From Candidatus Poribacteria bacterium (GTDB lineage: Bacteria; Poribacteria; WGA-4E; WGA-3G), in assembly GCA_964291315.2 (NCBI GenBank), contig OZ219753.1, positions 544,001 to 608,000 on the forward strand: 64,000 nt of DNA. The letters run 5' to 3'. The notes beneath the pieces were generated by a model, which searched no databases, had not been told where the DNA came from, and saw only the letters and a list, made by a program, of their open reading frames with translations. Position numbers and translations under genes: made by a program. Shown here in pieces: positions 15,039-50,709 of this stretch (positions are counted from its first letter, which is position 1; the number at the start of each line of letters is the position of its first letter).

Positions 15039-15202
15039 TAACTATGTGTTAGCTGGAAAAGCAGGTAAAATGTAAATAACCTGCTTAAAGATGAGAAATA
15101 TAATGGACAACACGGTTATGACCGGAAGTCCACTTTAGTAGATTCCCACCCCTACTTCGGTGAAGGTAGATGGGGAAAAACGCAACAGAGGAGTACTTTC
15201 CA

Positions 15203-15841
15203 ATGAAAACGTATGTGACGATCCCGAAACTCGTCATCGCAGTGCTCGCTATTGTCGCCTGCAGCTTCACGCCGCACGCTTGGAGTAAGGCACAAACTAG
15301 CTTTAATAGTCCCTCGGCTACGCTGCAAGTAGAAGCAGACCGGCAATTTATCACAGAACCCGAGGCGAAACCGACAGCACCCGGCAGATTGGCGAAACCT
15401 CACGGGACAGTGGGCTTACAATTTATCACAGAGCCCGAGGCGAAACCCGCGGAACCAGGCGAGCTGGAGCCTGCCCTTGTGCGTGCCAGACAACAAGAGC
15501 TAGCAGATCGCCTGCTTTTGCTATCTGAAAAGCAGCTGGCGGTTCCGAAGCAGTCGGCATTGCTGACAAACTATCCGAACCCGTTCAACCCCGAGACCTG
15601 GATCCCGTACGATCTTGCAGATGCTGCTGAAGTCAAAGTGTCCATTTATGCGGCAGATGGCAGCTTAGTTCGGACGCTCTCCTTAGGGCACCAAGTAGCA
15701 GGTGTCTACCAGAGCAAGTCTCGTGCAGCGTATTGGGACGGGCGCAACGACGCGGGTGAGTCTGTTGCAAGTGGACTCTATTTCTATACGCTTGAAGCAG
15801 GTTCCTTCGCTGCAACCCGTAAAATGTTGATAATGAAGTAG
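15203..15841 (+). CDS. small secreted protein: signal peptide, short repeat linker and T9SS type A-like/FlgD-Ig C-terminal domain
   Basis: GAGGAG RBS; signal peptide; LLTNYPNPFNPETWIPY…WDGRN…SGLYFY…TRKMLIMK C-terminus; QFITEPEAKP duplicated. Confidence 0.8.
   Translation: MKTYVTIPKLVIAVLAIVACSFTPHAWSKAQTSFNSPSATLQVEADRQFITEPEAKPTAPGRLAKPHGTVGLQFITEPEAKPAEPGELEPALVRARQQELADRLLLLSEKQLAVPKQSALLTNYPNPFNPETWIPYDLADAAEVKVSIYAADGSLVRTLSLGHQVAGVYQSKSRAAYWDGRNDAGESVASGLYFYTLEAGSFAATRKMLIMK
15344..15447 (+). repeat. intragenic 29-bp direct repeat
   Basis: caatttatcacaga(a/g)cccgaggcgaaacc at 15344-15372 and 15419-15447. Confidence 0.85.
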
Positions 15842-15936: not shown

Positions 15937-15963
15937 GCACAGATGGACAGTCTATGCTACAAG
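15937..15963 (+). repeat. REP-like palindromic element (GTAG family)
   Basis: gcacagatggacagtctatgctacaag matches the reverse complement of 26934-26960 at 24 of 27 positions. Confidence 0.6.
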
Positions 15964-16052
15964 TCCCTTGCAGATGCACCTTGCAGGTTATGGGACAAAA
16001 GAGTCTCCCTATATGTTTTTTCAAAGTCATGTTAGGCCTAAGGAGGCATAAA

Positions 16053-19000
16053 ATGCGAAGAACATTAGTGGTTCTCTCTGTGCTTGCCGCGTTTATGTTT
16101 GCGAGCGTCCCGTTCGCAGCGGCAGAATGGCAAGAGAACCTGGTAACCAATAACACGCTCAAAGCGCTCTATGTGATCAAGAGCACTTGGCGGGCAGCGG
16201 ATGATAACAAAGGTATCCCCGCAGGGTTCTTGACCCGCGGCTCATACCGCATCCTGCCCGGGAAGTCCAAGTTGTTCTATTCCTGGGACACCAACAGCAT
16301 CTATTTCCGTATTTCAAACGCAGAGCATGCGATAAAAGCGAACAGCGGCACGACGGCTTTTGCGTTCTGGGCTCATCCGAATCGCGCCTTCCGCGTTGTC
16401 TCACAGACGCTCGATACCTCTGTGACAACGGGTCAGCTGCTTTACTCTGATCGTTCGCCGGATCAGTTGGCTCAATTGGAGGGATTTGTCAGCTATACGG
16501 GTGGCTCCGAAGTGGTTGTCACTCCGGAGTGGGTGTTGCTAGATGGGCAGCCGACTGCTCCGCCAAATGACGAGCTCGGAGACGATGGCGGGTCGCCCGT
16601 TGAAGATGTTGCTCCGCCTGCGTGGGTAGAGAACATCGTAAGAAATGAGCGGGAAGAAGAGATATATGTTGTCTTTGCCACCTGGAAGGTTGAGAAGCCG
16701 AGGAAGGGGTGGCCTGAAGGGTTTCGGACGCGTGGCAGCTATCGTATCCCTCCGGGTAAAGGTAGAGTGTTTCATTCGTGGGAGGATAACGAGTCTTTTT
16801 TCCACATATCAAACGCGGATGGTGCGTTAAAACCGGAGAGCAGCAGTGGCACCTTCGAGTTCTGGGTTCATCCGAATAAGAAGTTTCGTATTGTGTCGGG
16901 TCAGTTCGAGAATGGTGTAACGCAGGAGGAGCTGCTGTATTCGGATCGTGCGAAGGAGGAGTTAGAGCACTCGGACGGCTTTATGTTATACGAGACCGGG
17001 GATAGTGGTGCTGAAGTGGTCGTTACTTCTGACTGGGTGTCGGTGTCTACTCTCCCACCTCCTCCGCCTCCTCCCGCTCCCGCCGTTCCTGAAGGTATGG
17101 TCTTGATCCCCGCTGGCACCTTCCAGATGGGTGCGCCCGGTACTTTTGAAAGCCCTGTTCATTCTGTTACTTTAGATGCGTTTTATATGGATACGCATGA
17201 AGTGACGAACACGGAATACGCTGCGTTCCTCAATGCAAAGGGCAAACATACCGATGGAAATAATACCTGGATCCGTCTTAGCGGTTCCAATAATAGTGTG
17301 AAGATTAGGTTATCCAATGGTAGATATACGCCGGTAGCGGCCTATGCAAATCATCCAGTTGCTCATGTGAGTTGGTATGGTGCGATGGCGTATGCGGAGT
17401 GGGCAGGTAAGCGGCTGCCGACGGGGGCAGAGTGGGAGTATGCTGCACGCGGCGGCTTAGTCGGTCAGACATACCCCTGGGGCAACGACGGCAATAATTC
17501 CCAGAATCGTGCCAACATGCGCTTCGGGTTTAAGTATGACTCCATGCCAGTCGGCAGTTATGCAGCCAACGGCTACGGATTGTATGATATGGCAGGGAAT
17601 CATCAGGAGCTGTGTTTAGACACCTACACCGCCTATTCGAGCGGGGCAAAGACGAACCCTGTGAGAGGTGCGACCAGTATCCAAGCACTATTGGCTAGCT
17701 ATAAAACGGCTAAAGGTGCTCGCGAGGTTCGTGGGGGGCACTGGGATTCCAGTCTTCCGGGCATTAAGGTTCATTATCGCCAGGGCATCAAGATCGGCGG
17801 TGATAACTCCGTCACCGGTTTCCGTTGTGTGAAGCCTGTATCTAGCCCCTCTACGAACAGTAACGATAACGATGCTGTCGAGACAACCCCGACACCTGTC
17901 GAGACAACCCCGACACCTGTTGTAACACCTGTCGAGACACCTGCAGGCATGGTCTTGATTCCCGCTGGCACCTTCCAGATGGGCGGGTCCGGTTTTGAAT
18001 CTCCCGTTCATTCTGTTACTTTAAATGCGTTTTATATGGATGCACATGAAGTGACAAACACGGAATACGCTGCGTTCCTCAATGCAAAGAGGAAACATGC
18101 CGATGCAGGGAAGACCTGGATCTATCTCAGTGGTAACAATAATAGGGTGAAGATTAGGTTATCAAGCGGTACGTATACAGTGAAAGCGGGTTATGGAAAT
18201 CACCCCGTTGCTCATGTGAGTTGGTATGGTGCGATGGCGTATGCGGAATGGGCAGGCAAGCGGCTGCCGACGGGGGCAGAGTGGGAGTATGCTGCACGCG
18301 GCGGCTTAGCCGGACAGACATACCCCTGGGGCAACGACGGAAATAGTCTCGGGAATCGTGCCAACATGCGCTTCGGGTTTAAGTGGGATTCCATGCCAGT
18401 CGGCAGTTATACGGGCAACGGCTACGGGTTGTATGATATGGCAGGGAATCATCAGGAGTTGTGTTTAGACACCTACACCGCCTATTCAAGTGGTGCCAAG
18501 ACGAATCCCCTGAGGGATGCTAACAGTAGTATCCAAGCGCTATTGGCTAACTATTTAGCGGCTACAGGTACCCGTGAGGTTCGTGGGGGTCACTATGATT
18601 CCAGTGGTGGAGACATTGCGGTTTATGCTCGCCGGGGCATCATGATCGGAGGTTCTAACTCCGTGACCGGTTTCCGTTGTGTTATACCTATCGCCCCTGC
18701 TAACAATAACAACAATGATGGGGAGTCCCAGGCCCAGGCACCTGTTCAGACACCTGTCAAGGTGCCTGTCAAGAAAACCCCGACACCTGTTGTAACACCT
18801 GTTGTGACACCCACGCTACCGCCGGGCATGGCGCTGATCCCCGCTGGCACGTTTAAGATGGGCAGCACCACGGGCGATGCGGATGAACGCCCTGTTCACA
18901 CTGTCACTTTAGATGCGTTTTATATGGATACACATGAAGTGACGAACACACAGTTCGCGGCATTCCTTACTGCAAAGGGCAAACACATCGACGCAGGGAA

Positions 19001-19565
19001 GACCTGGCTCGATATGTCAGATCCCGCCATAGGCATTGGGCTGGTAGCAGGGCAGGAAACCCCAACCTATCAAGCCAAGTCCGGTCATGGGAACCGGCCT
19101 GTCATTAGAGTCACTTGGCATGGTGCGAGAGCGTATGCGAAGTGGGCAGGCAAAGAGCTCCCCACGGAAGCACAATGGGAGTATGCTGCGCGCGGTGGGT
19201 TAGTTGGGAAACTATACCCCGGCGGCGACACCATAGACGCTACGAAGGCAAACTATGGTCAGAACGTAGGTAGCACGACGGACGTTGGCAGTTATGCGGC
19301 GAATGGTTATGGTCTCTATGACATGGCTGGGAATGTCTGGGAGTGGTGTCTGGATACGTATGACGATGTGTTCTATCAGAGTTCTCCTACCGCGAACCCG
19401 ATGTCAGGCGATCCAGACACAATGATGGATGATGTCCGTGTCCTGCGCGGCGGCTCGTATCTCTATTCAGCCCAGACGACTCGTGTCGCAAATCGCGACC
19501 GTGGCGCACCGGTGAGTACGGGCAGAGACCTCGGTTTCCGTTGTGTGAAGCCTGTATCTCCGTAA
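16053..19565 (+). CDS. secreted protein with two N-terminal repeat domains and three non-catalytic FGE-sulfatase (SUMF1/C-lectin fold) domains
   Basis: AGGAGG RBS at 16041, signal peptide; three GMxLIPAGTF…LPTxAxWEYAARGG…NGYGLYDMAGN…RGG…GFRCV units separated by Pro/Thr linkers; no FGE catalytic cysteine pair after RGG. Confidence 0.85.
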   Translation: MRRTLVVLSVLAAFMFASVPFAAAEWQENLVTNNTLKALYVIKSTWRAADDNKGIPAGFLTRGSYRILPGKSKLFYSWDTNSIYFRISNAEHAIKANSGTTAFAFWAHPNRAFRVVSQTLDTSVTTGQLLYSDRSPDQLAQLEGFVSYTGGSEVVVTPEWVLLDGQPTAPPNDELGDDGGSPVEDVAPPAWVENIVRNEREEEIYVVFATWKVEKPRKGWPEGFRTRGSYRIPPGKGRVFHSWEDNESFFHISNADGALKPESSSGTFEFWVHPNKKFRIVSGQFENGVTQEELLYSDRAKEELEHSDGFMLYETGDSGAEVVVTSDWVSVSTLPPPPPPPAPAVPEGMVLIPAGTFQMGAPGTFESPVHSVTLDAFYMDTHEVTNTEYAAFLNAKGKHTDGNNTWIRLSGSNNSVKIRLSNGRYTPVAAYANHPVAHVSWYGAMAYAEWAGKRLPTGAEWEYAARGGLVGQTYPWGNDGNNSQNRANMRFGFKYDSMPVGSYAANGYGLYDMAGNHQELCLDTYTAYSSGAKTNPVRGATSIQALLASYKTAKGAREVRGGHWDSSLPGIKVHYRQGIKIGGDNSVTGFRCVKPVSSPSTNSNDNDAVETTPTPVETTPTPVVTPVETPAGMVLIPAGTFQMGGSGFESPVHSVTLNAFYMDAHEVTNTEYAAFLNAKRKHADAGKTWIYLSGNNNRVKIRLSSGTYTVKAGYGNHPVAHVSWYGAMAYAEWAGKRLPTGAEWEYAARGGLAGQTYPWGNDGNSLGNRANMRFGFKWDSMPVGSYTGNGYGLYDMAGNHQELCLDTYTAYSSGAKTNPLRDANSSIQALLANYLAATGTREVRGGHYDSSGGDIAVYARRGIMIGGSNSVTGFRCVIPIAPANNNNNDGESQAQAPVQTPVKVPVKKTPTPVVTPVVTPTLPPGMALIPAGTFKMGSTTGDADERPVHTVTLDAFYMDTHEVTNTQFAAFLTAKGKHIDAGKTWLDMSDPAIGIGLVAGQETPTYQAKSGHGNRPVIRVTWHGARAYAKWAGKELPTEAQWEYAARGGLVGKLYPGGDTIDATKANYGQNVGSTTDVGSYAANGYGLYDMAGNVWEWCLDTYDDVFYQSSPTANPMSGDPDTMMDDVRVLRGGSYLYSAQTTRVANRDRGAPVSTGRDLGFRCVKPVSP

Positions 19566-20018: not shown

Positions 20019-23000
20019 GTGCAGATACATCCTTTGTTAAAATTCGTAGACCCGCCCATCTTAAAAGAGCAAACGCTACTGTTAAAAATTGGAATCATCT
20101 TTACCCTGGTAATTTGCGCAACTTTTGACGTTGCAGTGAACCGGATCACTGCAGAAGAGACTGCCCTAACAGAAGAAACACAAACAGAGACTACAAAATC
20201 AAGCGAACACACCGCTATCCCTGCTGATTCCGATAAACCCGAGACATCTGAGGAAAATCAGCGTTCTATCCCACCCGGACTGTCTAATCTCAATCCATTT
20301 AACGGTTGGAGCAAGTCAAAACACTTCATCTGGCAAAGCGGTAGCCAGCAGGCAGCAGGCAGCAATCAGCAAGAGGGGTGGGGCATAGATACACCACAAG
20401 AACAGACCGCACGCTCTACTGAAGACCAACAGCCGATAAATGATAGCGATCGACTCATACAACCCTATTTGGACAGCCTCCGACGATGGCGAAACCCGCT
20501 ATACCTAACCGACTTCAGCGAACTCTACAATTGGAAACCCAAGCCTAAGCAAGCAGAGGAGGGCATCGCTCTCCCAATGGATTCTAACCTCAAGATCACT
20601 GGCGTACAATCCGTAACCATAGAAGCAAACAAAACTCACTACTTCGGTGAGGGAGACCTGAACCGCTACGGGTATGGCGGCGGATACGGAAGCTACTCAT
20701 CCGGACTTGATCTAGGACTCACATCCTCCTACGGTTATGAGGACTTCGGATACAGCAGCAGCGGATTTGGCGGTGGATATGGATCAGGTGTTGGAAGCAG
20801 CTATGGCAGCTATGGCAGTGGATACAGCTCAGGATTTGGCGGCGGCTACGGCACCAGTGGCACGCCCCGAGCAACAGGCTTTAACCTGCGACAGATACAG
20901 CAATTCGGACTGCACGGACGCGTCGGGCAACGAACTCATATCTCCGTAGATTATAGCGCAGGCGGAAGCAGCTTTGGCAGCGGCGGATATGGCGGCGGAT
21001 ACGGCTTAGGTGGAACAAAAGAGCAGAAAATTAAAATCTGGTATGAAGGCACACCCGAAAGCATCATAAAAACTGTCTCATTTGGGGACATCACCCTCAG
21101 CCTGCCGAACACCCGTTTTTTGAACGTCAACCGGAATTTATTCGGGCTTGAGGGGGTTTTTGAATGGAAAAATACACGACTTACAGCTTTCGGTTCTCGC
21201 AGTAAGGGTATACGAGAGGTCCGAACCTTCCGCGGACAATCGCAACGAGCAGGCGGCAGATACGGATACGGACCACGCGGCATCCAGATCCAAGATACCA
21301 ACTATGTAAAGAGCAGATTCTATCACATACACAAAGATGAAGATGGCGAACTACATGAAGCATACCTCCCTATAAAAGCAGGAAGCGAAGAAATCTATAT
21401 CGACGACGGTGTCGTCGGAAACAACCAAGGCGGGAAACGGACAAGCCGGGGCTATTTCAACCCGCAGTTCCCCGGACAAGACTACAATATAGACCACGAA
21501 ACGGGCGAAATAGAATTTCTTACACCCATCTCGGCAAGCTACACTATTGTCGTAGCATACGAATACAACGGGAGCGGTGGCGGCAAAGTCGGCAACCCCG
21601 GCAACGTCTTCATCGACGAAAACGAAGACGGCACCATTGATGAACAAGGAGAAGAAATCGGTTACGTAGTCCTAAAAGAAAAAGGGTTTCGAGGGACTGA
21701 AGCGACACACGTTTATTGGCTCGGCAACCGAAATATTAATCCGCGCGACTTTACCCTCACAATCGTACGCCAAGGACAAGATGAGACATCCCCAACCAGC
21801 AGCGGCGCAGCACCCTACATCGAGATATTCGGCCTCGACCGAAACGGAGACGGGAATGTCGATGCCCAATTTATAGACTACGACAGAGGTTTCCTCCGAT
21901 TCCCAACAACCTACGGCATACATCCTTTTCAAATCACAGATCCAAACCACCCCTTTTATGCCTACCGGGAGGCAGTTAATAACAACGCCCTCTATCTTGA
22001 AGGCAGCCGAGCAGATGCGCAAATCTATACCATCATTGCAGACTACGCGTATCAATCAGAAACCTACAATGTAGGGATATTCGTCATACCAGAAAGTGAA
22101 ACTGTCCGCCTCAATGGACAAACCCTGATACGCGACACCGACTACATGATGGTTTATGAGGTTGGTACCCTCCGCTTCTTCAGACAGCTCGACGAGTTTG
22201 ACGAGATCGTCGTCGAATTTGAAAAGACACCCTTCGGAGGCTCAGCGCAACAGGCTATAGCCGGGGTTTGGCTAGAATACACACACAAACCGAAACCTAA
22301 ATCGGAAAGAGAACAGAGTCTCGAAGATAGGTTTAACCGACTAGGCGGCAGCCAAATCATGGACCACAGCCTCGGAGCGAGAACACAAGATGCTTTCGGA
22401 GAAGCCTTTTCAGGTAACAGAATCGGAACTTTGGGAGGGAGCAGCCTCGGCGGAGGTTTCGGACAGAGCGGCTTCGGCAGTGGATATAGCAGCTTCGGCG
22501 GCATTGGCGGCAGATCCCGAAACTACTACGGCAGCTACGGCGGGCAGATGGACCATTTCAACCCTGTTTTCAAAAAAGGATTCACACTATCAACAGGTTA
22601 TATTCTCAACACCGGGCAAAAACCCGCAGAAATACCGGATGCAAACGAGGTACCAAACCGGTTGCAAGCCTTCAATCTAAACACAAGCTTCGGCAGAGAA
22701 TTCAATATCGCCGGCGTTTTTAACCTGCTCCCTTTTGTTAAAATGCGGAACTTTCCGCTTTCACTCAATTTCAGCGGTGAAACAGCCTATTCACACAATA
22801 ATCCTAATAGTATTGGTGTCGCACTCATTGATAGTATGGAGGGCGCTAAGGAAACAACAACCATAACCACACTCAAATACAACTGGAAACACAGCAGCCT
22901 ACCTTACATCGCCCAAAATCAAACTAACTCCACAGAGCCGTCAACTTACCAGGTTATACCAACTAATGAGAACAGAGCCGTTTTTAGGATTGCCCTGAAA

Positions 23001-26000
23001 AATAAGAATGAAGCCGAAGCTGTCGGAAACTATATGCGAAACCGAGACGTACCTGCCTCTTCAATCCAACCGCTCTCTCTCTCTACCGAAGAACGTCTCA
23101 TCATGGAACTAGGCTACAGTTTCACAGACATCGCCGCAGAATGGGGCGGCTTTTCAAACGGGATCTCAGCATCAGGCGTAGACTACTCAGAACGCAGTTC
23201 CGTTGAGATGTGGCTACGCGTCCAAGGAGACGATAACATCACACTCCACTTGAACCTCGGCGCAGTGAATGAAGATACCGACCAAGACAAGCGATTGGAC
23301 AGCGAAGACCTACCCGATACACTGATGGACACAAACGGTGATGGAAGTGTCGATGCACTAGATTTAAACCTCGAAAACCTTTCAGATGCCGACCGTTATC
23401 GCGGGAACGGCACCTTGGATACAAGCGAAGACATCGGATGGAATTACAACGGACCCCTTGGCGAAATACCCATCGGCACAAATAACCAGGTATTGGACAG
23501 CGAAGACCTCAACGGGGACGGCGTACTCGACAACGTAGATGCATACTTCGAAATCTCAATGCCACTCAATGAAATTCCGAAAGAGTGGATCAAAAGTAAA
23601 AACGCGAATGACTGGATCTTTCTTAGTATTCCACTCTCACAATTTAGACCTGTCGGCTCGCGGTTGCCGAGTCTTGTGTTTGTGCAACACTTCCGATTCT
23701 GGCTGAGCAAAAATGCACCAGGAAGAGTGCAAGGCACTCTGCAGTGGGCTTCTATCGAAATTGTCGGAAACAAGTGGCAACAAGGAATAATAACCCGATC
23801 CAGCTCGCAAATCAACCCCGAGGTCGACCCCACTCTTAGCGACACCGCCCTTACACCCTCAACCGAAACGTTGTCAACAAGCACAATTGTCGAGAATACA
23901 CTCGAAAAGTTCATCGTCGGTACAAAAGATAACTTCAGCTATGACGACTATCAGAGCGCCTATCTTGACATCGAAGATAACGAACTCTTTAAAAAACTGC
24001 ACCCGTTCACAGCGACATCCCTTGGTTTCCAAACACAACAGCAACGGGAACAGACACTCAGCCTCGAATATTACCTTTTCCCAGAATCTTACGGAGTCAC
24101 CTCCAAACAATTGAAAGGTCTAACCCAAAGTGAAGGGCAAGACTTCAGCAAACATGATACCCTCCGTTTTTGGCTCTATGGTGATAATAGCGATACCACC
24201 TTCGTCTTGCAGCTTGCACCAACCGTCCCGACTAGCTATCGAAGCGCTTTTTATAGCTCAGACCCATTTATCGATCAGACACAAGAAGACGAAGTGAATG
24301 TTTTCGAAAACCTAACTGACTACTATGAATATACAGTGCCAATCGATTTCGACGGCTGGAAATTGATCGAAATCGATCTGCGCGACTTGCATAGAAACGC
24401 CTATCCAGATATCGCAGCAGGCAGCAACCATCAACAACCTGCCGGGAGTAGCGGAGAACAGCAACCACTGAACGTAACTGAAAACCAACAACCAACAACT
24501 GAATCACAAACTGCACTAGATGCACCAGACGGGCAGCCTGACGGTTTCACAATCCGCGGTAACAACAGCACAAGACTCTCCATTAAAAATATTGGCGGCA
24601 TCCTATTGGGCATCCGCAACAACACCAACCGTGAAATTAGCGGCGAAATCTGGGTCAACGAGATACACCTCGGCGACCCACTCGTCCGAGCCGGATGGGC
24701 GCGCCGCAGCAACATGTCAGTCGGACTCAGTAATATCATTAAGCTGAGGGGCGGATACGCCAGCCAAGACAAAGACTTCGAAAGCAGCGCAGGACAAGTC
24801 GGTAGACAACGACTCTCCTCGCGCGGATACAGTACCACGAATAACGACTTCAACATCGACGCCGATGTTACGCTCTTCCCATGGCTACCCATCCGATACG
24901 GCATCCGACAACAAGACACCGAAACTGAAAGCCAACGAGGTAGTTATAGCAGCTTCCAGAGCGGGAAAAGCGAAATACAGACACGAGATTTTTCTATCCA
25001 ACTTAACAGAAACCCCTTCCCCAACCTCGGATTTGCCTATAATTACCAAGACTTTTGGAACGAACAGCAGGGAACACAAATCAGCTATCTCTATACAGGA
25101 ACCTTCCGTTACGACCTCGGCTCAAAACTCGGGGTTAACGCACAATATCGACACGAGGATATACTCGCTAAACCCGAAACCGCAACACAGACATCAACAA
25201 CTTCAACCTCCTATTCCTATTATAGCTACGGTTACGGCAGAAATCGCGACGAAAAAACCGACAGCGCTACAATAGCACTAAATATCAGCCCCACAAACAT
25301 CTTCAGCCTAAACCCAACTTACGACATCAGCCGGACCCTTGAAAGACGAGAAGACCGCAATTACACTAGCAATATAGAAACAGAACCTGAAACGCCCGAA
25401 ACTCAAAAAGAGGAAACGAATAACTTTTCAATCACGCAACGCGAACATCGCTTAGCACTTACACCCCGACTCAATCGCGATTTGCTCGGCATGCGCCCTA
25501 CTGTCACTAGCCGAATGAGCTTTCGCGAAAATTGGTTCAGCCAGGAAAAAAGCGCTTCACTCAACGGAAACGTCAGTATTGGAATGAACCTACGCATCGA
25601 AAAATGGTTTGGATGGCTTCTCAGAAACGGAACAAACGAAATAAACGAAACACCGGAAAACAGCCCACAATCTGCAACCAGCCACCAACAGCCACCAGAG
25701 GACGCTGGAGCTAAAAGCACCACATCTGCCACAGATGAGATGCCGACACTCCACAACGAACAATCAACAACGCTCAGGGAACACCTACGAGAAAGCGGGA
25801 TCGATGAAACACAAATCCAAGAACTCGAAGAAAACCTCGGCGATTGGATCGAACGCGACAAGAATGAGGCACCCCCCGCAGAGGCAATCTCAAACCGAGT
25901 ATCAGAAACAACAGATGGGATGCTGAACCGAATCCTAAAAAGTTTCACCGTAAGCACAAACGCCAACTTTACCGCATCCGAATCTTATCGGCAACTCGCG

Positions 26001-26747
26001 GGTAACCAGTCAATCATAGAAATCTATTCGCTCGCTGAGGATGCTAAAGAACGCACAAACTCGCAGCGGAGTAACCGTTACACAATGCGAACCTCGGTAG
26101 AACCGTGGAAATGGGTATCCCTCGGTGCAAACGTCAACACCACTGATAGCTTCCGAAAAAGCACTGGAACCATTTATACATCGCATGCCGAATCATACGA
26201 AGGCAACCTAAAACTAAGCGCCCAAGAAACTACTAGTTTTCAAATACGTTACAGCTTCACAAAGCGAGATAATACAACACAGAAAGCGACTCTCAGCGAC
26301 AGCACCGCCCACACACCATCGCTCAGCTGGATACATACTTGGGGAAAAGAGACACGGACAGCACTCGGGATACGAACTACCTTCCAAGATCAACAGCGAA
26401 GTGGCATTCAAAGCAACGCTTTCATTGTCACCCCAAACCTGAGCGTTGACTACCGTTACCACACAGAAAATGGCATACGCCTCCCCTTTATCGGTAGAAT
26501 TCCACTCAAACACGACCTAGAATTAACCAACACGCTCTCCTGGGCCATTCGGAGGGAGCAATTCGGCGCAAATCGCGAAGAACGCTCAGAACGATATGAA
26601 ACAACCCTACGAGTCGGATACAAAATTAGTACACATATCACCGCAAACTTCCACCTCGGTGTCAGCTACAATAACGATAGGGTCGAAGAAGGTAGAGACT
26701 TCCTCTCAATCGCAAGTGCATTGACGATCCGCGGGGAAATTCAATGA
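20019..26747 (+). CDS. sprA: SprA/Sov-like type IX secretion outer-membrane translocon homolog
   Basis: 2242 aa; colinear SprA-like blocks KIWYEG…IIKTVSFGDITLSL…LFG, IPESETVRLNG…DY…G, LNLGAVNED, SEDLNGDGVLD…YFE, EIWVNE…GWA; amphipathic beta-strand C-terminal third. Confidence 0.7.
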   Translation: MQIHPLLKFVDPPILKEQTLLLKIGIIFTLVICATFDVAVNRITAEETALTEETQTETTKSSEHTAIPADSDKPETSEENQRSIPPGLSNLNPFNGWSKSKHFIWQSGSQQAAGSNQQEGWGIDTPQEQTARSTEDQQPINDSDRLIQPYLDSLRRWRNPLYLTDFSELYNWKPKPKQAEEGIALPMDSNLKITGVQSVTIEANKTHYFGEGDLNRYGYGGGYGSYSSGLDLGLTSSYGYEDFGYSSSGFGGGYGSGVGSSYGSYGSGYSSGFGGGYGTSGTPRATGFNLRQIQQFGLHGRVGQRTHISVDYSAGGSSFGSGGYGGGYGLGGTKEQKIKIWYEGTPESIIKTVSFGDITLSLPNTRFLNVNRNLFGLEGVFEWKNTRLTAFGSRSKGIREVRTFRGQSQRAGGRYGYGPRGIQIQDTNYVKSRFYHIHKDEDGELHEAYLPIKAGSEEIYIDDGVVGNNQGGKRTSRGYFNPQFPGQDYNIDHETGEIEFLTPISASYTIVVAYEYNGSGGGKVGNPGNVFIDENEDGTIDEQGEEIGYVVLKEKGFRGTEATHVYWLGNRNINPRDFTLTIVRQGQDETSPTSSGAAPYIEIFGLDRNGDGNVDAQFIDYDRGFLRFPTTYGIHPFQITDPNHPFYAYREAVNNNALYLEGSRADAQIYTIIADYAYQSETYNVGIFVIPESETVRLNGQTLIRDTDYMMVYEVGTLRFFRQLDEFDEIVVEFEKTPFGGSAQQAIAGVWLEYTHKPKPKSEREQSLEDRFNRLGGSQIMDHSLGARTQDAFGEAFSGNRIGTLGGSSLGGGFGQSGFGSGYSSFGGIGGRSRNYYGSYGGQMDHFNPVFKKGFTLSTGYILNTGQKPAEIPDANEVPNRLQAFNLNTSFGREFNIAGVFNLLPFVKMRNFPLSLNFSGETAYSHNNPNSIGVALIDSMEGAKETTTITTLKYNWKHSSLPYIAQNQTNSTEPSTYQVIPTNENRAVFRIALKNKNEAEAVGNYMRNRDVPASSIQPLSLSTEERLIMELGYSFTDIAAEWGGFSNGISASGVDYSERSSVEMWLRVQGDDNITLHLNLGAVNEDTDQDKRLDSEDLPDTLMDTNGDGSVDALDLNLENLSDADRYRGNGTLDTSEDIGWNYNGPLGEIPIGTNNQVLDSEDLNGDGVLDNVDAYFEISMPLNEIPKEWIKSKNANDWIFLSIPLSQFRPVGSRLPSLVFVQHFRFWLSKNAPGRVQGTLQWASIEIVGNKWQQGIITRSSSQINPEVDPTLSDTALTPSTETLSTSTIVENTLEKFIVGTKDNFSYDDYQSAYLDIEDNELFKKLHPFTATSLGFQTQQQREQTLSLEYYLFPESYGVTSKQLKGLTQSEGQDFSKHDTLRFWLYGDNSDTTFVLQLAPTVPTSYRSAFYSSDPFIDQTQEDEVNVFENLTDYYEYTVPIDFDGWKLIEIDLRDLHRNAYPDIAAGSNHQQPAGSSGEQQPLNVTENQQPTTESQTALDAPDGQPDGFTIRGNNSTRLSIKNIGGILLGIRNNTNREISGEIWVNEIHLGDPLVRAGWARRSNMSVGLSNIIKLRGGYASQDKDFESSAGQVGRQRLSSRGYSTTNNDFNIDADVTLFPWLPIRYGIRQQDTETESQRGSYSSFQSGKSEIQTRDFSIQLNRNPFPNLGFAYNYQDFWNEQQGTQISYLYTGTFRYDLGSKLGVNAQYRHEDILAKPETATQTSTTSTSYSYYSYGYGRNRDEKTDSATIALNISPTNIFSLNPTYDISRTLERREDRNYTSNIETEPETPETQKEETNNFSITQREHRLALTPRLNRDLLGMRPTVTSRMSFRENWFSQEKSASLNGNVSIGMNLRIEKWFGWLLRNGTNEINETPENSPQSATSHQQPPEDAGAKSTTSATDEMPTLHNEQSTTLREHLRESGIDETQIQELEENLGDWIERDKNEAPPAEAISNRVSETTDGMLNRILKSFTVSTNANFTASESYRQLAGNQSIIEIYSLAEDAKERTNSQRSNRYTMRTSVEPWKWVSLGANVNTTDSFRKSTGTIYTSHAESYEGNLKLSAQETTSFQIRYSFTKRDNTTQKATLSDSTAHTPSLSWIHTWGKETRTALGIRTTFQDQQRSGIQSNAFIVTPNLSVDYRYHTENGIRLPFIGRIPLKHDLELTNTLSWAIRREQFGANREERSERYETTLRVGYKISTHITANFHLGVSYNNDRVEEGRDFLSIASALTIRGEIQ

Positions 26748-28933: not shown

Positions 28934-29668
28934 TTGAGTGACGTTCCGCAAACACATCCGCGATACCATTCATTGATATTACGAGACAGGATTGTTGCAG
29001 GGGTAGCCCAAGGAATAACTTCTGTTCATGGGCTGATCGCGCACGGTCGCGGAGAGGCCTTTGATTACCTCATCGGGGAGACGACACGCCCGTTCGCGCT
29101 TGAGGCGATCCACGCGGCGGGTGCGAGGCTTCGGCTGGCAGAACATCCTGTTATTTCGGTCAACGGAAATGTGGCAGCATTGGTTCCTGAAGTGCTCGTT
29201 GAGCTTGGTCAAATCCTGAACGCGCCGTTGGAGGTGAATATCTTCCACACGGAAACAGGACGAGAACAAAGAATCCGAGAGCATCTGCTCAACCATGGTG
29301 CCCTAGACGTTCTTATGCCAACAACGGAAGCACAGCTCTCCTTTATCGATTCACATCGAAAGTTTGTGCATCCAGACGGGATTTTTAAAGCGGATGTTAT
29401 CTTTGTCCCGCTTGAGGATGGGGATCGCTGCGAAGCACTTCGAAAAATGGGTAGGGCGGTGGTGACTGTTGATCTGAACCCGATGTCGCGGACGGCACAA
29501 CGCGCGAGCATCACAATCGTGGACAATGTGGTGCGAGCATTGCCGTTGTTATGTGAAGATATTCTGGGGCTCAGCGATTGTACAGCGCGAGCCGTCCTGA
29601 AAAAATATAGTAACGAGTCGGTGTTGGGAGAAGCCTTAGGACATATCAGCAGGGGCGGGAATGGCTAA
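28934..29668 (+). CDS. archaeal-type 4-phosphopantoate--beta-alanine ligase (phosphopantothenate synthetase)
   Basis: HPRYxSL, GLIAHGRGEAFDYLIGE, SVNGN, EVNIF, VPLEDGDR and DLNPMSRTA motifs of the archaeal PPS family. Confidence 0.9.
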   Translation: MSDVPQTHPRYHSLILRDRIVAGVAQGITSVHGLIAHGRGEAFDYLIGETTRPFALEAIHAAGARLRLAEHPVISVNGNVAALVPEVLVELGQILNAPLEVNIFHTETGREQRIREHLLNHGALDVLMPTTEAQLSFIDSHRKFVHPDGIFKADVIFVPLEDGDRCEALRKMGRAVVTVDLNPMSRTAQRASITIVDNVVRALPLLCEDILGLSDCTARAVLKKYSNESVLGEALGHISRGGNG

Positions 29669-31586
29669 CAGGGACGGTAGAACTAACCGCGTCAAACCAC
29701 ATATTCTGTTGATTGGGTTGGTGCTTGTGGCTTTTAATAGCTACTGGTGCCTGATGGGAACGGAGGTGTGGCATTCTACACAGCTGACAATCGCCTCGTT
29801 GTTCTTTAATGCGGTTTTCACGCTACTCGTCTTTGTGCTTGTCAACCTATTGTTGCAAAGATATGTGCCGCGGCTGGCGATGTCGCCAGCTGATTTACAA
29901 ACGATTTATGTCATGGTAGTGATGGTAACAACCATCAGCGGGCACACCATGATGGGTTACCTCATCCCTGTGCTGGCACATACTTTCCAGTTCGCGTCAC
30001 CAGAGAACGAATGGATTCCCCTTTTTGGACACCACATCCCGCCGTGGATCGCTGTTAAAAGCCCCCGCGTTTTGGATGGGTTCTACAACGGCGATTCTAC
30101 GCTCTATACTCCTGCTACGCTAAACGCCTGGATCCCACCCGTGTTGGCTTGGTCCAGCTTTGTTATTGCTCTGTGGTTGACGCTGCTAGCAGTAACCGTC
30201 TTTCTCCGAAAGCAGTGGACAGAAAATGAACGGTTGAACTACCCGATTGTCCAACTCCCCTTGGCTTTGACGAGCAATCCGAAACGTTTCTTTAGTTCTC
30301 CGTGGATGTGGTTGGGTTTTGCACTCGCGGGGAGTGCGGAACTACTCAACGGATTGAGTTTTCTGTTTCCAGAGATTCCTTCGCTGCCTATTAGAAACAA
30401 AGTGCTTGGGCAATTTAGTTCAAAACCGTGGAGTGCGATAGGTCCCATTCGCGTCTCCTTTTATCCGTTCAGCATCGGCTTGATGTTTTTCACCCCGTTG
30501 GATCTTTCGTTTTCCTGCTGGTTTTTCTGGCTTTTGAGTCGTCTCCAGTTAATTGTAACAGATGTGCTTGGGGCGCGGAATATCTATCATCTGGAGCAGC
30601 AGACGGGGGCATGGATAGCGTTTGGATGCATTCCGTTGTGGATGGGACGCCGGCACTATGGACGCATTATCCGTAAAGTCTTCGGGATCGCCCAACGACA
30701 CGGCCAACGGCCGCCTGAAGATTCGAATGAACCGATCCGTTATCAGACTGCGGCGGGCCTGTTCACTGTCGGGATGCTGTTCCTCTTCTTCTTCTGTTAT
30801 CAGATGGGAATGACCCTCTGGGCAATTGGACTCTTTTTTTTGTTCTACTTTCCACTAGTTATCGGTATCACGCGTATCCGCGCCGAAATTGGACCCCCGT
30901 TGCATCAGCTCATCTTTGTTGATCCTGGACGAACAATGGTATTAGCGTTAGGCACCCGTCGCCTCGGTGCTGCCAATCTGACGGGCCTAACGTTTCTCTA
31001 TCCGTTTGTCCGCTGTTTCCGGGCCCATCCAACACCGAGTGAGCTGGAGGCGTTCAGATTGGCAGAACGAAGCCACATTGGATATCGACAACTCCTTATC
31101 GGGATGATCCTAGCGATTGTGTTCGGTATCCTGATAACGTTTTGGGCATATCTACATGTGCTTTATGACATCGGGGCAGGAAGCAAAGCCCGTGGCTGGA
31201 TCGTCTATATGGGATGGGAAACGTTCAACCGATTGCAAACATGGCTTGTCAGCCCTCGGGAGACAAACGTCCCAGAACTTGGGGTTATCGGCAGCAGTTT
31301 CCTATTCACGATATTTCTAATGGTCATGAAGACGCGTTTTTTGTGGTGGCCGTTGCATCCTGCTGGTTATGTATTGGTCAGCGGTACAGGAATGGGGAGA
31401 TTGTGGTTTACAATTTTCTTGGGCTGGTTAGCGAAAGCAGTCGTGTTAAAAATTGGTGGTGTGAAACTTTATCGGCAGGCGGTGCCGTTCTTCTTAGGGC
31501 TTATTTTGGGAGACTATACACTCGGGTGTGTCTGGAGCTTGATCGGGTTGGTATTAGAGATACCGACATATATTGTTTGGCATTGA
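29661..31586 (+). CDS. multi-pass membrane protein (DUF6785/DUF6784, OPT-like)
   Basis: ASPENEW, RKQWTENERLNYPIVQLP, RIRAEIG, WWPLHPAGY and PFFLGLILGD motifs; many hydrophobic segments. Confidence 0.75.
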   Translation: MANRDGRTNRVKPHILLIGLVLVAFNSYWCLMGTEVWHSTQLTIASLFFNAVFTLLVFVLVNLLLQRYVPRLAMSPADLQTIYVMVVMVTTISGHTMMGYLIPVLAHTFQFASPENEWIPLFGHHIPPWIAVKSPRVLDGFYNGDSTLYTPATLNAWIPPVLAWSSFVIALWLTLLAVTVFLRKQWTENERLNYPIVQLPLALTSNPKRFFSSPWMWLGFALAGSAELLNGLSFLFPEIPSLPIRNKVLGQFSSKPWSAIGPIRVSFYPFSIGLMFFTPLDLSFSCWFFWLLSRLQLIVTDVLGARNIYHLEQQTGAWIAFGCIPLWMGRRHYGRIIRKVFGIAQRHGQRPPEDSNEPIRYQTAAGLFTVGMLFLFFFCYQMGMTLWAIGLFFLFYFPLVIGITRIRAEIGPPLHQLIFVDPGRTMVLALGTRRLGAANLTGLTFLYPFVRCFRAHPTPSELEAFRLAERSHIGYRQLLIGMILAIVFGILITFWAYLHVLYDIGAGSKARGWIVYMGWETFNRLQTWLVSPRETNVPELGVIGSSFLFTIFLMVMKTRFLWWPLHPAGYVLVSGTGMGRLWFTIFLGWLAKAVVLKIGGVKLYRQAVPFFLGLILGDYTLGCVWSLIGLVLEIPTYIVWH

Positions 31587-31856: not shown

Positions 31857-32987
31857 ATGAGAACCACCCATAATATTCTTTTTCAAGATGCTCAAGATTT
31901 GAAAGAAATTCCTTCAGAAAGCGTCGATCTGGTCGTTACTTCTCCTCCGTATCCTATGATTGCTATGTGGGATGAAATGTTTAGCAATCAGAACCCAGAA
32001 ATTCAGAAAGCGTTGGCATGTGGTAATGGGAAACAGGCGTATGCGTTGATGCATGAGGTACTCAACGCGGTATGGAATGAGATATTTAGAGTTTTAAAGG
32101 TGGGCAGGTTTGCCTGCGTCAATATCGGGGATGCGACTCGGAAGGTAAGAGATGATTTCTGTTTATATCCAAACCACGCGAGAATTTTGGATTACCTTTT
32201 AAGGATAGGGTTCTCAGCATTACCGGATATCCTGTGGCGGAAGCAGGCGAATTCGCCGAATAAGTTTATGGGCTCGGGCATGTTGCCTGCTGGAGCTTAT
32301 GTGACGTTGGAGCACGAATACATTTTGATAGTGAGAAAAGGCCCGAAAAGAGAATTTAAAACAGAAGTAGAAAAAGAAAATAGACGTGAGAGTGCTCTAT
32401 TTTGGGAAGAGAGAAATATCTGGTACTCAGATGTTTGGATGGATATTAGGGGAATAGGTCAAAAACTACCGAGGACAGTGTCGCGATTGAGAAGTGCAGC
32501 ATTCCCGTTTGATCTAGCGTATCGACTCATCAATATGTATTCTGTGAAGGGTGATGTTATACTTGACCCATTTCTCGGGACAGGAACCACAACTGCGGCT
32601 GCGATGACATCGGGGCGCAACAGCATCGGTGTTGAAATCGAGGACAGTTTTCAACACGTTTTAGAGCCGATTGCTAGCCATATCGTCAATTTTTCAAATG
32701 ATTATTTGCGCAACAGGTTGATAAGACATTTTGAGTTTGTCAAAAACCGGATCCAAAACTCAGGAACGTTAAAATATACAAATAAGTACTACGATTGTCC
32801 GGTTGTGACGAGCCAAGAGCAGTCTATTTTGCTAAACGGCTTAAAAGAGGCTTATGCACACAGAGATAATATCTTTGATGTTGTATATACAACGAAACCG
32901 TGTCCCTGGAATTTGGAGCAAGTCTCAGAGTCTGTTGTCGATAATCAAACGGAGCCGCACACAAAACCTATTCAATTCATCAAGTAA
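31857..32987 (+). CDS. type II DNA methyltransferase (N4-C/N6-A, beta class)
   Basis: VVTSPPY catalytic motif precedes LDPFLGTGTT SAM-binding motif. Confidence 0.9.
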   Translation: MRTTHNILFQDAQDLKEIPSESVDLVVTSPPYPMIAMWDEMFSNQNPEIQKALACGNGKQAYALMHEVLNAVWNEIFRVLKVGRFACVNIGDATRKVRDDFCLYPNHARILDYLLRIGFSALPDILWRKQANSPNKFMGSGMLPAGAYVTLEHEYILIVRKGPKREFKTEVEKENRRESALFWEERNIWYSDVWMDIRGIGQKLPRTVSRLRSAAFPFDLAYRLINMYSVKGDVILDPFLGTGTTTAAAMTSGRNSIGVEIEDSFQHVLEPIASHIVNFSNDYLRNRLIRHFEFVKNRIQNSGTLKYTNKYYDCPVVTSQEQSILLNGLKEAYAHRDNIFDVVYTTKPCPWNLEQVSESVVDNQTEPHTKPIQFIK

Positions 32988-43738: not shown

Positions 43739-45421
43739 ATGAAAATCACGCCTGTTAAAGGGAGAGCGATGCTGCACTGGGTCGGCAAACGCCCTATCGA
43801 CGCAGTCAACGCCTATCCCGCACAACTCATAGAAACCTATAACGTTGAAAATCCAGAGAAAGAGCCGACTTACAATAAATTTTTGGAAGGCCCCAACCTG
43901 ATTTTTCACGGAGATAACAAGGAGATCCTCTCCACACTTCTTGTGCAGGGTTTCCGTGGGAAGATAGACCTTATTTATATCGACCCTCCATTTGACAGTG
44001 GCGCGGATTACGTGCGAAGGGTGAAACTACGCGGCGGATAGAGGAACTTAGAAGGTGAAGGCCACACTGTTATTGAGCAAGCACAATACACCGACATCTG
44101 GGCAAATGACAATTACCTCCAATTTATGTATGAGAGGCTGATTTTGATGTACGAATTGCTATCAGATAAAGGTTCAATTTATCTACATTGTAATTATAAA
44201 AAGAGTCACTATCTAAAAGTCCTCATGGATGAGGTATTCGATAAAGATTTATTTCAAAATGAAATCATTTGGTACTACAAAAACGCTTCACGTGGTAAAA
44301 AGAGATTAGCCCATGCCCATGAGTCTGTTTTTTGGTATACCCGATCCCCGGAAGAATATATTTTCAACCGTGATGACATCTTAGTACCTTTTGAAAGTGG
44401 CATGACGGAATGGCGATACAGTAAGGGTGGGCAAGCAGGAAACGCCGTACCCAAAGGTAAAACCCCTGATGATGTTATCATTCTCCCTTCCCTTAACACT
44501 ATGGATGCAGAACGTTCCAACTACCCTACCCAGAAACCCGAAGCACTGATAGATCGTATTATCAAGGCATCAACTAACGAAGATTCCATTGTCCTCGACT
44601 GCTTTGCGGGAAGCGGCACAACCCCCGCTGTATCTGACAAACTCGGCAGACGCTGGATCGCCGCTGACCTCAATAAAGGCGCTATACAGACAACTCTCAA
44701 ACGAATACAAAATAGCAGCCACCAACCGCGCGGCATCGCACACTACCGCATCAATAACTACGATTTTCAGACCCAGCACGAACTCAGACAGATCCTCATC
44801 GCTAAATACGGCGTGCAAACCGACAGGAAAGCCGCCTTCTTTGATGGCACCCTGGATGGCACGCTGGTCAAAATCGCTGATCTCGGAAAACCGCTCACAC
44901 GCTTGGATATCCAGCTCATCAAAGACGAACTCCGAAACTCGCCAGACGAGACCCGCAACATCACAGTCTTGTGCAACGGCAGTGAAGTCGGCATACAAGC
45001 GGAGTTGGACAGAGCCAACCGGCACCGTCCGATTAACAAGATCATTGTTCGCGATATTCAACGCGAAGGTATCACGACCTATGCTCCAGCGGAAGCAGAG
45101 GTTAGCTTTGCGAGAGAGGGGCTCATCGTCAAGATTACGCTGTCAGATTACCTAAGTCCGAGTATCTTGGCACGGATGGAGATAGATCGCACTGTCTTTG
45201 ATGAACAGCTGGGTGACTTTCGGGCACAGATTGATTGTGTTCTGATTGACACAGACTACAGTGGTGAGCATTTCACAATTGTTGAGAGTGATGTGCCGGA
45301 GAGAAAGTCCGATTTTATTGAGGGGTGCTATACGGTAACACTTCCGCGCCCTGATGCCCGTGTTGCTATTAAGATTATTGACATGCTTGGTGAGGAGACA
45401 GTTATCGCTCAGTCTGTGTAA
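43739..45421 (+). pseudogene. type III R-M Mod-like adenine methyltransferase interrupted by an in-frame TAG at 44039-44041
   Basis: GDNKE…YIDPPF, then GG-TAG-RNLEGEGHTVIEQAQYTDIWANDNYLQFM in the same frame as the 44126 ORF (YPTQKP, DCFAGSGTT). Confidence 0.8.
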
Positions 45422-50600: not shown

Positions 50601-50709
50601 TTTAGTGGCGCGCGTTATCAGTGTCAGTCTAAAGACGGTGGAGATTGTTAAGAGGTTGCCGGAATTGTCTTTAAACTCTAAGGGAAAAGATAAAACCGTT
50701 CGGATTTGA
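47614..50709 (+). CDS. single-chain type IIG/ISP-like restriction-modification enzyme (nuclease, N6-MTase, LlaBIII-like specificity domain)
   Basis: N-terminal IDG…WEAK nuclease motif, YTP, DPFVGTG, GNPPY, YRPF, SALEWVIDQY; no helicase motifs seen. Confidence 0.85.
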   Translation: MPKISLKPTHKPLRDYYATLQAYDQHDIRHEGAVSSPFETLLHVCAKQMKATLIPQYQMHAPTGNRIVIDGAILDEYSLPLAYWEAKDIDDDLPKAVEEKRAAGYPLDNILFQNPQRAILYQNGAEVLYVDITASVSLIAALECLFAYVPPALENWQSAVNDFKEHVPALAGKLKELINQRHAVDTAFQTAFANFYETCRTTINPELSRDAVEEMLIQHILTERIFRTVFNNSAFTRRNIIAREIENVVDKLIRQAFSREDFLAPLDRFYSAIEQAAALCKDFSQKQSFLNTFYEQFFQGFSEDVADTHGIVYTPQPIVDFMVNSVQHLLETEFGRSLSDSGVHIIDPFVGTGNFIVRLMQDIQGTALEAKYREELHCNEVMLLPYYIASLNIEQEYFRRTGAYLPFEGIVLADTFELLEQEQGQLFTRENTERVKRQKSADMFVVIGNPPYNMGQANENDNNKNRKYPLMDARVAETYAKDSAATNRNKLYDPYVKAIRWASDRIGAEGMVAFVTNNSLLDGIAFDGMRKHLAEDFDALYVLDLGGNARKGLKVSDANVFGIRVGVSISLFVKKRERSSGEPCIYYYRTDEMWNREQKFAFLNKCQHVGGVAWQPIEPDARHTWLTTGLRPEFSSFIPMGSKGAKSAKGEVTDVLFKTYSNGVVTARDAWVYNFNQNALAENISSMIDTYNAEVARWTQRTNREVNVDNFLISDDMKIKWSSTLKQKLQSGQLAAFTDANVRSSLYRPFTKSNLYFDRMMNQRVGGFSSIFPRPETEAENRGICVSRPGANSPFHTLIVDAIPDDHITSAAQCFPFYIYDEDGTNRRENITDWALTEFRSHYKGDSISKWDIFHYTYGLLHHPDYREKYEVNLKRDLPHIPFATDFWAVATAGAQLTELHINYEAAQQFELKYRETPDTPIDWRVEKMKLSKDKTQLKYNEFLTLDGIPAEAFEYRLGTRSALEWVIDQYRVKTHSRSGLVNDPNRSDAPRYIVDLVARVISVSLKTVEIVKRLPELSLNSKGKDKTVRI

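Follow-up and report, generated by a model that had tools for sequence, protein, structure and literature searches.

Introduction

How the very wide T9SS (type IX secretion system) pore stays tight while passing folded proteins is known from one Bacteroidota model only, in which two separate proteins, PorV and Plug, alternate. The translocon SprA is described as having a periplasmic N-terminus (PMC10994853) and an extracellular cap formed by two folded inserts, placed between strands 7 and 8 and between strands 11 and 12 of the barrel (PMC9127263), and Plug (Fjoh_1759; P. gingivalis PG2092/PGN_0144) is reported to close SprA off at its periplasmic end in the absence of PorV (PMC9127263, PMC9251779, PMC8754138). 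SprA has been called specific to the Fibrobacterota-Chlorobiota-Bacteroidota (FCB) group in a 2025 Nature paper (PMC12611786). The gene described here comes from Candidatus Poribacteria, a sponge-associated phylum placed outside Bacteroidota and FCB in the NCBI taxonomy, and lies in a stretch of 64,000 nucleotides (nt) of contig OZ219753.1 (assembly GCA_964291315.2, positions 544,001 to 608,000), which was analysed as a whole and is called the window; unless stated otherwise, nucleotide positions are those of the window. Its product, a divergent homolog of SprA/Sov, serves a type 9-like secretion system as translocon in the outer membrane and is almost certainly an SprA-family translocon that carries conserved, YG-type disordered loops.

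Disordered domains of this type are described for PEX13, where they are tied to a membrane conduit for folded proteins. The PEX13 YG domain is rich in Tyr and poor in charges, has Gly/Ser linkers about 4 residues long, keeps its composition while its positions vary, forms hydrogels at 4-40 mg/ml and conducts folded proteins; the FG nucleoporins have longer linkers (PMC9795577). The gene and its four loops, the latter numbered from the N-terminus and given with their amino acid (aa) positions, are listed below.

20019..26747, + strand: SprA/Sov-family T9SS translocon gene, one open frame, 2242 aa, GTG start as listed
20631..20876, + strand: loop 1 (aa 205-286), β1-β2 connection, extracellular by parity, with 13 Tyr and 4 Phe
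20961..21020, + strand: loop 2 (aa 315-334), β3-β4 connection, extracellular by parity, predicted with low confidence throughout
22287..22577, + strand: loop 3 (aa 757-853), β8-β9 connection, a periplasmic turn by parity, the largest loop and arginine-bearing
25173..25250, + strand: loop 4 (aa 1719-1744), β19-β20 connection, extracellular by parity, rich in Ser, Tyr and Thr

A divergent SprA homolog in Poribacteria

The true start of the gene possibly lies slightly downstream of the listed GTG. The protein matches the NCBIfam model TIGR04189 (SprA/Sov) in five stretches (E 1.8e-39, 134.9 bits), which does not reach the equivalog cut-off of 200 bits, and it is therefore filed as a divergent member of the SprA/Sov family and not as an equivalog. 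A single-sequence phmmer search of the PDB with this protein returned nothing significant, and a Pfam scan likewise gave nothing significant and no SprA_N match; SprA was reached by profile only, a profile of 38 homologs matching F. johnsoniae SprA (6h3i_A) at E 3.2e-162, with profile positions 162-1723 corresponding to SprA 140-2055. AlphaFold2 was run with 21 orthologs in the alignment on two fragments, aa 140-1339 (mean predicted local distance difference test, pLDDT, 65.7) and aa 1300-2242 (mean pLDDT 72.0), and the best Foldseek matches of both models are SprA chains; against 8gl8_A the N-terminal model scores E 2.8e-39 and the C-terminal model 3.6e-16.

Compared with SprA/Sov of F. johnsoniae and P. 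gingivalis (PDB 6H3I, 6H3J, 8GL8), the Poribacteria protein thus shows homology over most of its length and the same fold, and it shares the cap inserts after strands 7 and 11 and the long loop that joins strands 24 and 25. It differs in its score under the equivalog cut-off, in the missing SprA_N match and in its four YG-type disordered loops, where SprA has short turns such as the tight β8-β9 turn that the profile alignment places near residue 766 of the F. johnsoniae protein. The translocon gene was found in 173/176 genomes of the phylum, among them 132 of the 133 high-quality ones, and in all 31 of 31 genera.

Composition and predicted disorder of the loops

Low-complexity segments were defined by windows of 15 aa with at least 80% G/S/Y/F. 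By this definition the translocon holds segments at aa 214-233, 235-283, 309-334, 805-834 and 1726-1740, corresponding to 20658-20867, 20943-21020, 22431-22520 and 25194-25238 on the + strand. An initial annotation of this DNA, made from the sequence alone, had pointed out blocks of Gly, Ser, Tyr and Phe here, and the window scan finds them where it placed them; a further motif that it listed, GGRYGYG near 21250 (about aa 410), is present and is too short for the 15-aa threshold. Such windows cover 140 residues of the protein. When its sequence was shuffled 2000 times, they covered 0.66 residues on average and 36 at most, and no shuffle reached 140. Of the 8111 stop-to-stop frames in the 4.40-Mb genome that are 100 aa or longer, 12 hold any aromatic-bearing segment of this kind. 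The translocon gene accounts for 110 such residues in 4 segments, and none of the remaining frames exceeds 21. Notable Tyr-rich stretches elsewhere in the genome are confined to contigs C2 (- strand, frame offset 2714) and C4 (+ strand, frame offset 258985); each is about 20 aa long and made of Y/G/S/R, and the frames that hold them measure 220 and 556 aa.

Pooled over 22 orthologs, the fractions of the leading residues are G 0.32, S 0.18 and Y 0.17 in loop 1, G 0.48, S 0.13 and Y 0.13 in loop 2, G 0.28, S 0.19, R 0.09, Y 0.08 and F 0.08 in loop 3, and S 0.25, Y 0.19 and G 0.17 in loop 4, so that G+S ranges from 0.41 to 0.61 and Tyr exceeds Phe in loops 1, 2 and 4 and about equals it in loop 3. 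A median spacer of 3 residues separates the aromatics in each of loops 1-3, and a median of 1 those of loop 4. Charged residues are few, though not absent: they make up 0.11-0.12 of loops 1 and 2 and of the core of loop 3, 0.19 of loop 4 and, over its full length, 0.22 of loop 3. In loop 1 a conserved core of the SGLDLGLTSSYGY type is flanked by two YG stretches. Loop 3 contains a short helix (aa 763-774), which is followed by a core rich in G, S, F, Y and R (aa 795-849, 22401-22565) that ends in a conserved GGRSR-type motif; its net charge is positive in 22/22 orthologs (+1 to +15), while loop 1 is near neutral. In combining Tyr with Arg, loop 3 is reminiscent of FUS-family proteins and their Tyr-Arg stickers.

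Apart from that short helix, the AlphaFold2 models place no secondary structure in the loops, whose pLDDT runs from about 25 to below 50: it is 24-31 per 10-residue block in loop 1 and below 50 in loop 2, at aa 772-849 of loop 3 and at aa 1726-1741 of loop 4. The disorder prediction that had been proposed as a check on the inserts thus came out as disordered, with pLDDT near 25. A look-up of loop 1 in the ESM Atlas gave no usable match.

The initial annotation had further likened the inserts to prion-like or FG-nucleoporin sequences, and this comparison holds in part. A Q/N-rich prion-like identity was rejected on the low Asn and Gln content of all loops (Asn 0.02 for loop 1, 0.01 for loop 2 and 0.04 for each of loops 3 and 4; Gln outside the ten commonest residues in every loop), whereas the aromatic-glycine character stands, with the refinement that the loops are of a Tyr/Gly/Ser (YG or FUS) type and that Phe equals Tyr only in loop 3. 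By their aromatic spacing and low charge, the loop sequences appear to match the published description of the PEX13 YG domain, with which they share Tyr-dominated aromatics, short Gly/Ser linkers, few charges and a composition kept while positions vary, together with a tie to a membrane conduit for folded proteins (PMC9795577). There is, however, no homology between the two. The PEX13 meshwork consists of many copies in two orientations in the bilayer, whereas the Poribacteria loops are four parts of one β-barrel chain and face both membrane sides; gel formation and cargo partitioning are hypothetical for the Poribacteria loops. FG nucleoporins and the [G/S]Y[G/S] domains of FUS-type proteins resemble the loops in being disordered, in combining aromatic with small residues and in belonging to the cohesive type, and differ in being eukaryotic, multi-copy and soluble or pore-anchored.

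Conservation and origin of the loops

The loops are a feature of the phylum. A word-based protein search yielded 120 proteins besides the query, two homologs bearing the name Candidatus Poribacteria in their source records, and at least 3 segments lie at matching places in 63 of 65 full-length Poribacteria-type proteins (38-80% identity), the other two having two each; segments are absent from all 33 distant homologs of the same search (21-28% identity, some labelled Elusimicrobia). HMMER, run exhaustively over 1.84 billion representatives, gave 721 matches, of which the best 150 were examined, 147 of them new proteins. Among these, 19 carry a segment: 16 belong to close relatives that share 47% identity or more, often as fragments, and three are distant and have stretches of 15-18 aa only. 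Of 124 distant representatives, 121 are without the loops. Gly/Ser/Tyr segments of 29-93 aa are present in all five deep-lineage genomes examined, and segments occur in 29/29 loci of the same genus. The absence from orthologs that the initial annotation had named beforehand as speaking against its proposal was thus not seen; the composition it described is conserved, in 63/65 proteins and in five deep lineages.

A multiple alignment of 42 homologous sequences allows the sites themselves to be compared between 22 orthologs and 16 distant homologs. The β1-β2 site measures 69-94 aa in the orthologs and 21-23 aa in the distant homologs, the β3-β4 site 28-46 as against 20-31 aa, and the β8-β9 site 65-118 as against 0-2 aa. 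These lengths bear out the earlier description of the inserts as interruptions of otherwise SprA-like blocks, and identify them as true insertions. Loop 4 is not longer than its counterparts in distant homologs and is distinctive in composition only.

Mean pairwise identity among the 22 orthologs is lower in the loops (0.31-0.48) than in strands and caps (0.57-0.69), and loop lengths vary, over 66-91, 12-30 and 62-115 aa, while loop composition holds. Low identity and variable length are also what would be expected of tolerated low-complexity filler, that is, of expansions at permissive strand connections which are kept by mutational bias or by weak selection for flexibility or length and whose aromatic-glycine chemistry has no role, and the distant homologs do function without loops. 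Such an origin seems quite improbable to us, given that the same composition recurs at the same four sites across the whole phylum, that it is unique to this gene in the genome, and that the number of aromatic residues in loop 1 is confined to 14-22 in all 22 orthologs. The other long low-confidence loops of the same protein have an ordinary and different composition, being acidic or polar with G 0.03-0.07 and Y+F 0.01-0.08, which argues against a general mutational bias. At the nucleotide level, Tandem Repeats Finder reports inside the loops only a 9-nt x2.4 and a 12-nt x2.2 repeat, and Gly, Ser and Tyr codon use is mixed, like that of the remainder of the gene; the loops are therefore not fresh products of slippage, and recent tandem duplication or DNA slippage was rejected as their origin. 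Open reading frames (ORFs) on the opposite strand beneath the loops (for example 20951-21301 and 22154-22504) were likewise set aside as by-products of composition, because it is the + frame that is conserved phylum-wide.

Barrel topology

The placement of the loops rests on a count of strands, which also locates three further connections of the barrel.

21234..22253, + strand: cap insert A (aa 406-745), β7-β8, a folded β-rich domain in the AlphaFold2 model, in a position that fits the published cap insert (PMC9127263)
22800..24635, + strand: cap insert B (about aa 928-1539, end approximate), β11-β12, in a position that fits the published insert (PMC9127263)
25596..25946, + strand: β24-β25 connection (aa 1860-1976), long, acidic, helical and disordered, periplasmic by parity, pLDDT below 50 over most of its length

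The fragment models contain 11 and 25 or 26 strands, one element at about aa 1540-1583 being ambiguous in a way that leaves the loop parities unaffected. In the resulting list seven strands precede the first large insert, four lie between the two inserts, and the disordered connection falls at strands 24-25 when counted back from the C-terminus. This agrees with the published SprA anchors, among them the periplasmic N-terminus and the two cap inserts, and loops 1, 2 and 4 are accordingly extracellular and loop 3 periplasmic by parity. The model thus places loops on both rims of the barrel, three outside (β1-β2, β3-β4, β19-β20) and one in the periplasm (β8-β9), a topology that would allow entry into the lumen and does not prove it. 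The β24-β25 connection (117 aa; G 0.07, Y+F 0.03, E+D 0.23) provides an internal contrast to the YG loops. Weak matches of the CBM_11 and EF-hand/dockerin-like kinds fall within cap insert B. No strands in the models are shorter than 1-6 and 35-36, which have 9-14 residues apart from strand 2 (16), and we suspect that they form the sill of the lateral opening, a guess not used as evidence here.

Gly, Tyr and Ser occur frequently in the β-strands and aromatic girdles of the outer membrane. On meeting lipid, lipopolysaccharide or the cap, the loops might fold up and extend the barrel wall in β-rich form; alternatively, the extracellular ones, which are three of the four, might be adhesive or cross-linkable surface elements towards a host matrix. 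We regard a structured or surface role of this kind as very improbable: AlphaFold2 forms no strands there despite the 21 orthologs in its alignment, the alternating hydrophobic pattern is absent, and adhesion leaves unexplained that the largest loop is periplasmic.

P0081, P0082 and P0084, the most divergent loop-bearing orthologs (38-39% identity), have a precomputed LysM domain (PF01476), and their conserved regions start about 200 residues later than in the window protein. The LysM domain suggests that in this lineage the periplasmic N-terminus is anchored to peptidoglycan.

Accompanying secretion components

As in the systems built on SprA/Sov, the Poribacteria translocon is accompanied by a PorV homolog and by proteins tagged with a C-terminal sorting domain (CTD). 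The PorV homolog of this genome matches Pfam PF19572 with 33.2 bits (cut-off 27), its profile matches 6h3i_F at E 1.8e-23, and a homolog is present in 60/61 sampled genomes of the phylum. A DUF5683-like ORF of 289 aa (L005:2513-3382, contig C4; 26.1 bits, cut-off 26.7), which shares 29 nt with the end of the gene for the PorV homolog, may be a conserved partner. Type-A sorting domains (TIGR04183) number 35 above cut-off in the genome. One of the 35 is in the window, about 4 kb upstream of the translocon gene, in a 223-aa protein encoded at 15170-15841 on the + strand (26.1 bits, cut-off 23) that also matches FlgD_ig. With these results the known range of CTD-tagged proteins and of homologs of SprA and PorV comes to include nearly every genome sampled from the phylum, in contrast to the FCB-specific label given to SprA in the 2025 paper (PMC12611786). 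Models for GldL (TIGR03513), GldM (TIGR03517) and GldM_1st (PF12081) had no match in the 95.2%-complete genome, the control genomes being likewise silent for these three models, whose sensitivity is uncertain; the T9SS here may be motor-less or very divergent, which would set it further apart from SprA/Sov systems.

Possible functions of the loops

The reading that we prefer, to which we give a somewhat less than even chance, is that the loops act as a built-in cohesive seal or cargo-contact mesh. Taken together they comprise about 225 residues, 37 of them aromatic, which as cohesive flexible tethers would occupy or curtain the openings of a very wide barrel. Much like the PEX13 YG meshwork or the FG nucleoporins, they could thereby give the pore a built-in seal or sieve, and could offer a sticky contact surface to cargo that is folded and CTD-tagged. 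The SprA pore is reportedly about 6-7 nm wide (Lauber 2018). By our own arithmetic, the roughly 21 kDa of loop would reach about 180-250 mg/ml in a pore of this width and 5 nm in height if all loops entered, and confinement of the roughly 225 residues would thus bring them above the concentrations at which YG domains gel.

A more far-reaching version holds that the loops, anchored on both rims of a 36-strand barrel, form a self-carried Tyr/Gly meshwork that seals the pore and through which folded CTD-tagged cargo partitions, as a convergent prokaryotic counterpart of the PEX13 YG phase and the nuclear-pore FG barrier. Such a mesh could, as the initial annotation had speculated of a gel-like gate, stand in for Plug, with which loop 3 shares the periplasmic rim that Plug seals, Plug itself being a separate folded protein and the loops parts of the translocon chain; and it might replace part of the energised gating, a suggestion made because the GldLM motor was not detected. 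We consider this version unlikely.

Several points weigh against a seal or mesh. That the loops are intrinsically disordered is itself a prediction, drawn from the low confidence of AlphaFold2 for low-complexity sequence, and their rim positions would be compatible with loops that enter the lumen, follow the outer wall or point clear of the pore. The loops sit on opposite membrane sides and are spread around the barrel (strands 1-4, 8-9 and 19-20), which does not imply a single plug of all four; SprA contributes one polypeptide per pore, whereas PEX13 and FG meshworks have many copies; and loop 2 is long in closer orthologs only and measures 12-15 aa in deeper ones. The conserved non-YG core of loop 1, and the conserved motifs and 22% charged residues of loop 3, suit specific binding as well as they suit a gel. 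The need for a seal is itself uncertain, since the F. johnsoniae Plug mutant is reported to have no secretion or gliding defect (PMC9127263).

An alternative is that the loops are docking or capture arms. Flexible loops of Tyr, Ser and Gly are sufficient for protein recognition, as is known from work on synthetic antibodies. Such arms would bind proteins promiscuously and form no barrier, those outside holding a PorV-like carrier or cargo CTDs and the basic loop 3 recruiting a periplasmic chaperone, a scaffold or acidic partners. The conserved core motif of loop 1, the conserved flanking motifs of loop 3 and the net positive charge of loop 3 in every ortholog fit this alternative, as does the report that in F. 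johnsoniae SprE touches SprA at its periplasmic rim and the cargo CTD is contacted by the cavity and the cap (PMC10994853). Most of each loop is, however, free in sequence and length while composition is kept, which is unusual for a specific interface, and a partner has yet to emerge from the analysis; we judge docking to be rather unlikely. A complex prediction asked if the PorV site adjoins loops 1 and 2, combining the PorV homolog with the N-terminal strands 1-7, which bring loops 1-2 along, and with the C-terminal strands 30-36; it scored 0.01 (mark 0.32) and counts neither way.

Literature searches, seen through the partial texts that they returned, found nothing linking Poribacteria to type IX secretion and nothing relevant on FG-like disordered gates in outer-membrane barrels. 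The Poribacteria translocon adds to the one described model a whole phylum outside Bacteroidota that has kept aromatic-glycine disordered loops at both mouths of the same barrel. If the loops do form a cohesive barrier, selective-phase gating would be no eukaryotic invention, and a small, single-gene system would be at hand for testing it; even if they only dock partners, they mark sites of functional divergence from SprA.

Genome context

Upstream of the translocon gene, a 1203-aa ORF at 15954-19565 (+ strand) contains three FGE-sulfatase domains, and its best NCBIfam match is GldK/PorK (344.1 bits, cut-off 350). Its assignment to GldK/PorK was rejected: the model has 124 matches in the genome, all of them generic FGE-sulfatase domains, spread over many multi-domain ORFs, and in view of so large an expansion the adjacency is no evidence for a PorK ring. 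Elsewhere in the window, two paralogous genes for DUF6785/DUF6784 membrane proteins lie at 29661-31586 and 56482-58389 on the + strand (E 8e-162 and 1e-155), the second of them preceded by genes of the BatA/VWA and Omp85/POTRA types. Also on the + strand are two N6/N4 DNA methylase genes (31857-32987 and 44126-45421) and one for a Type ISP restriction-modification enzyme (47614-50709).

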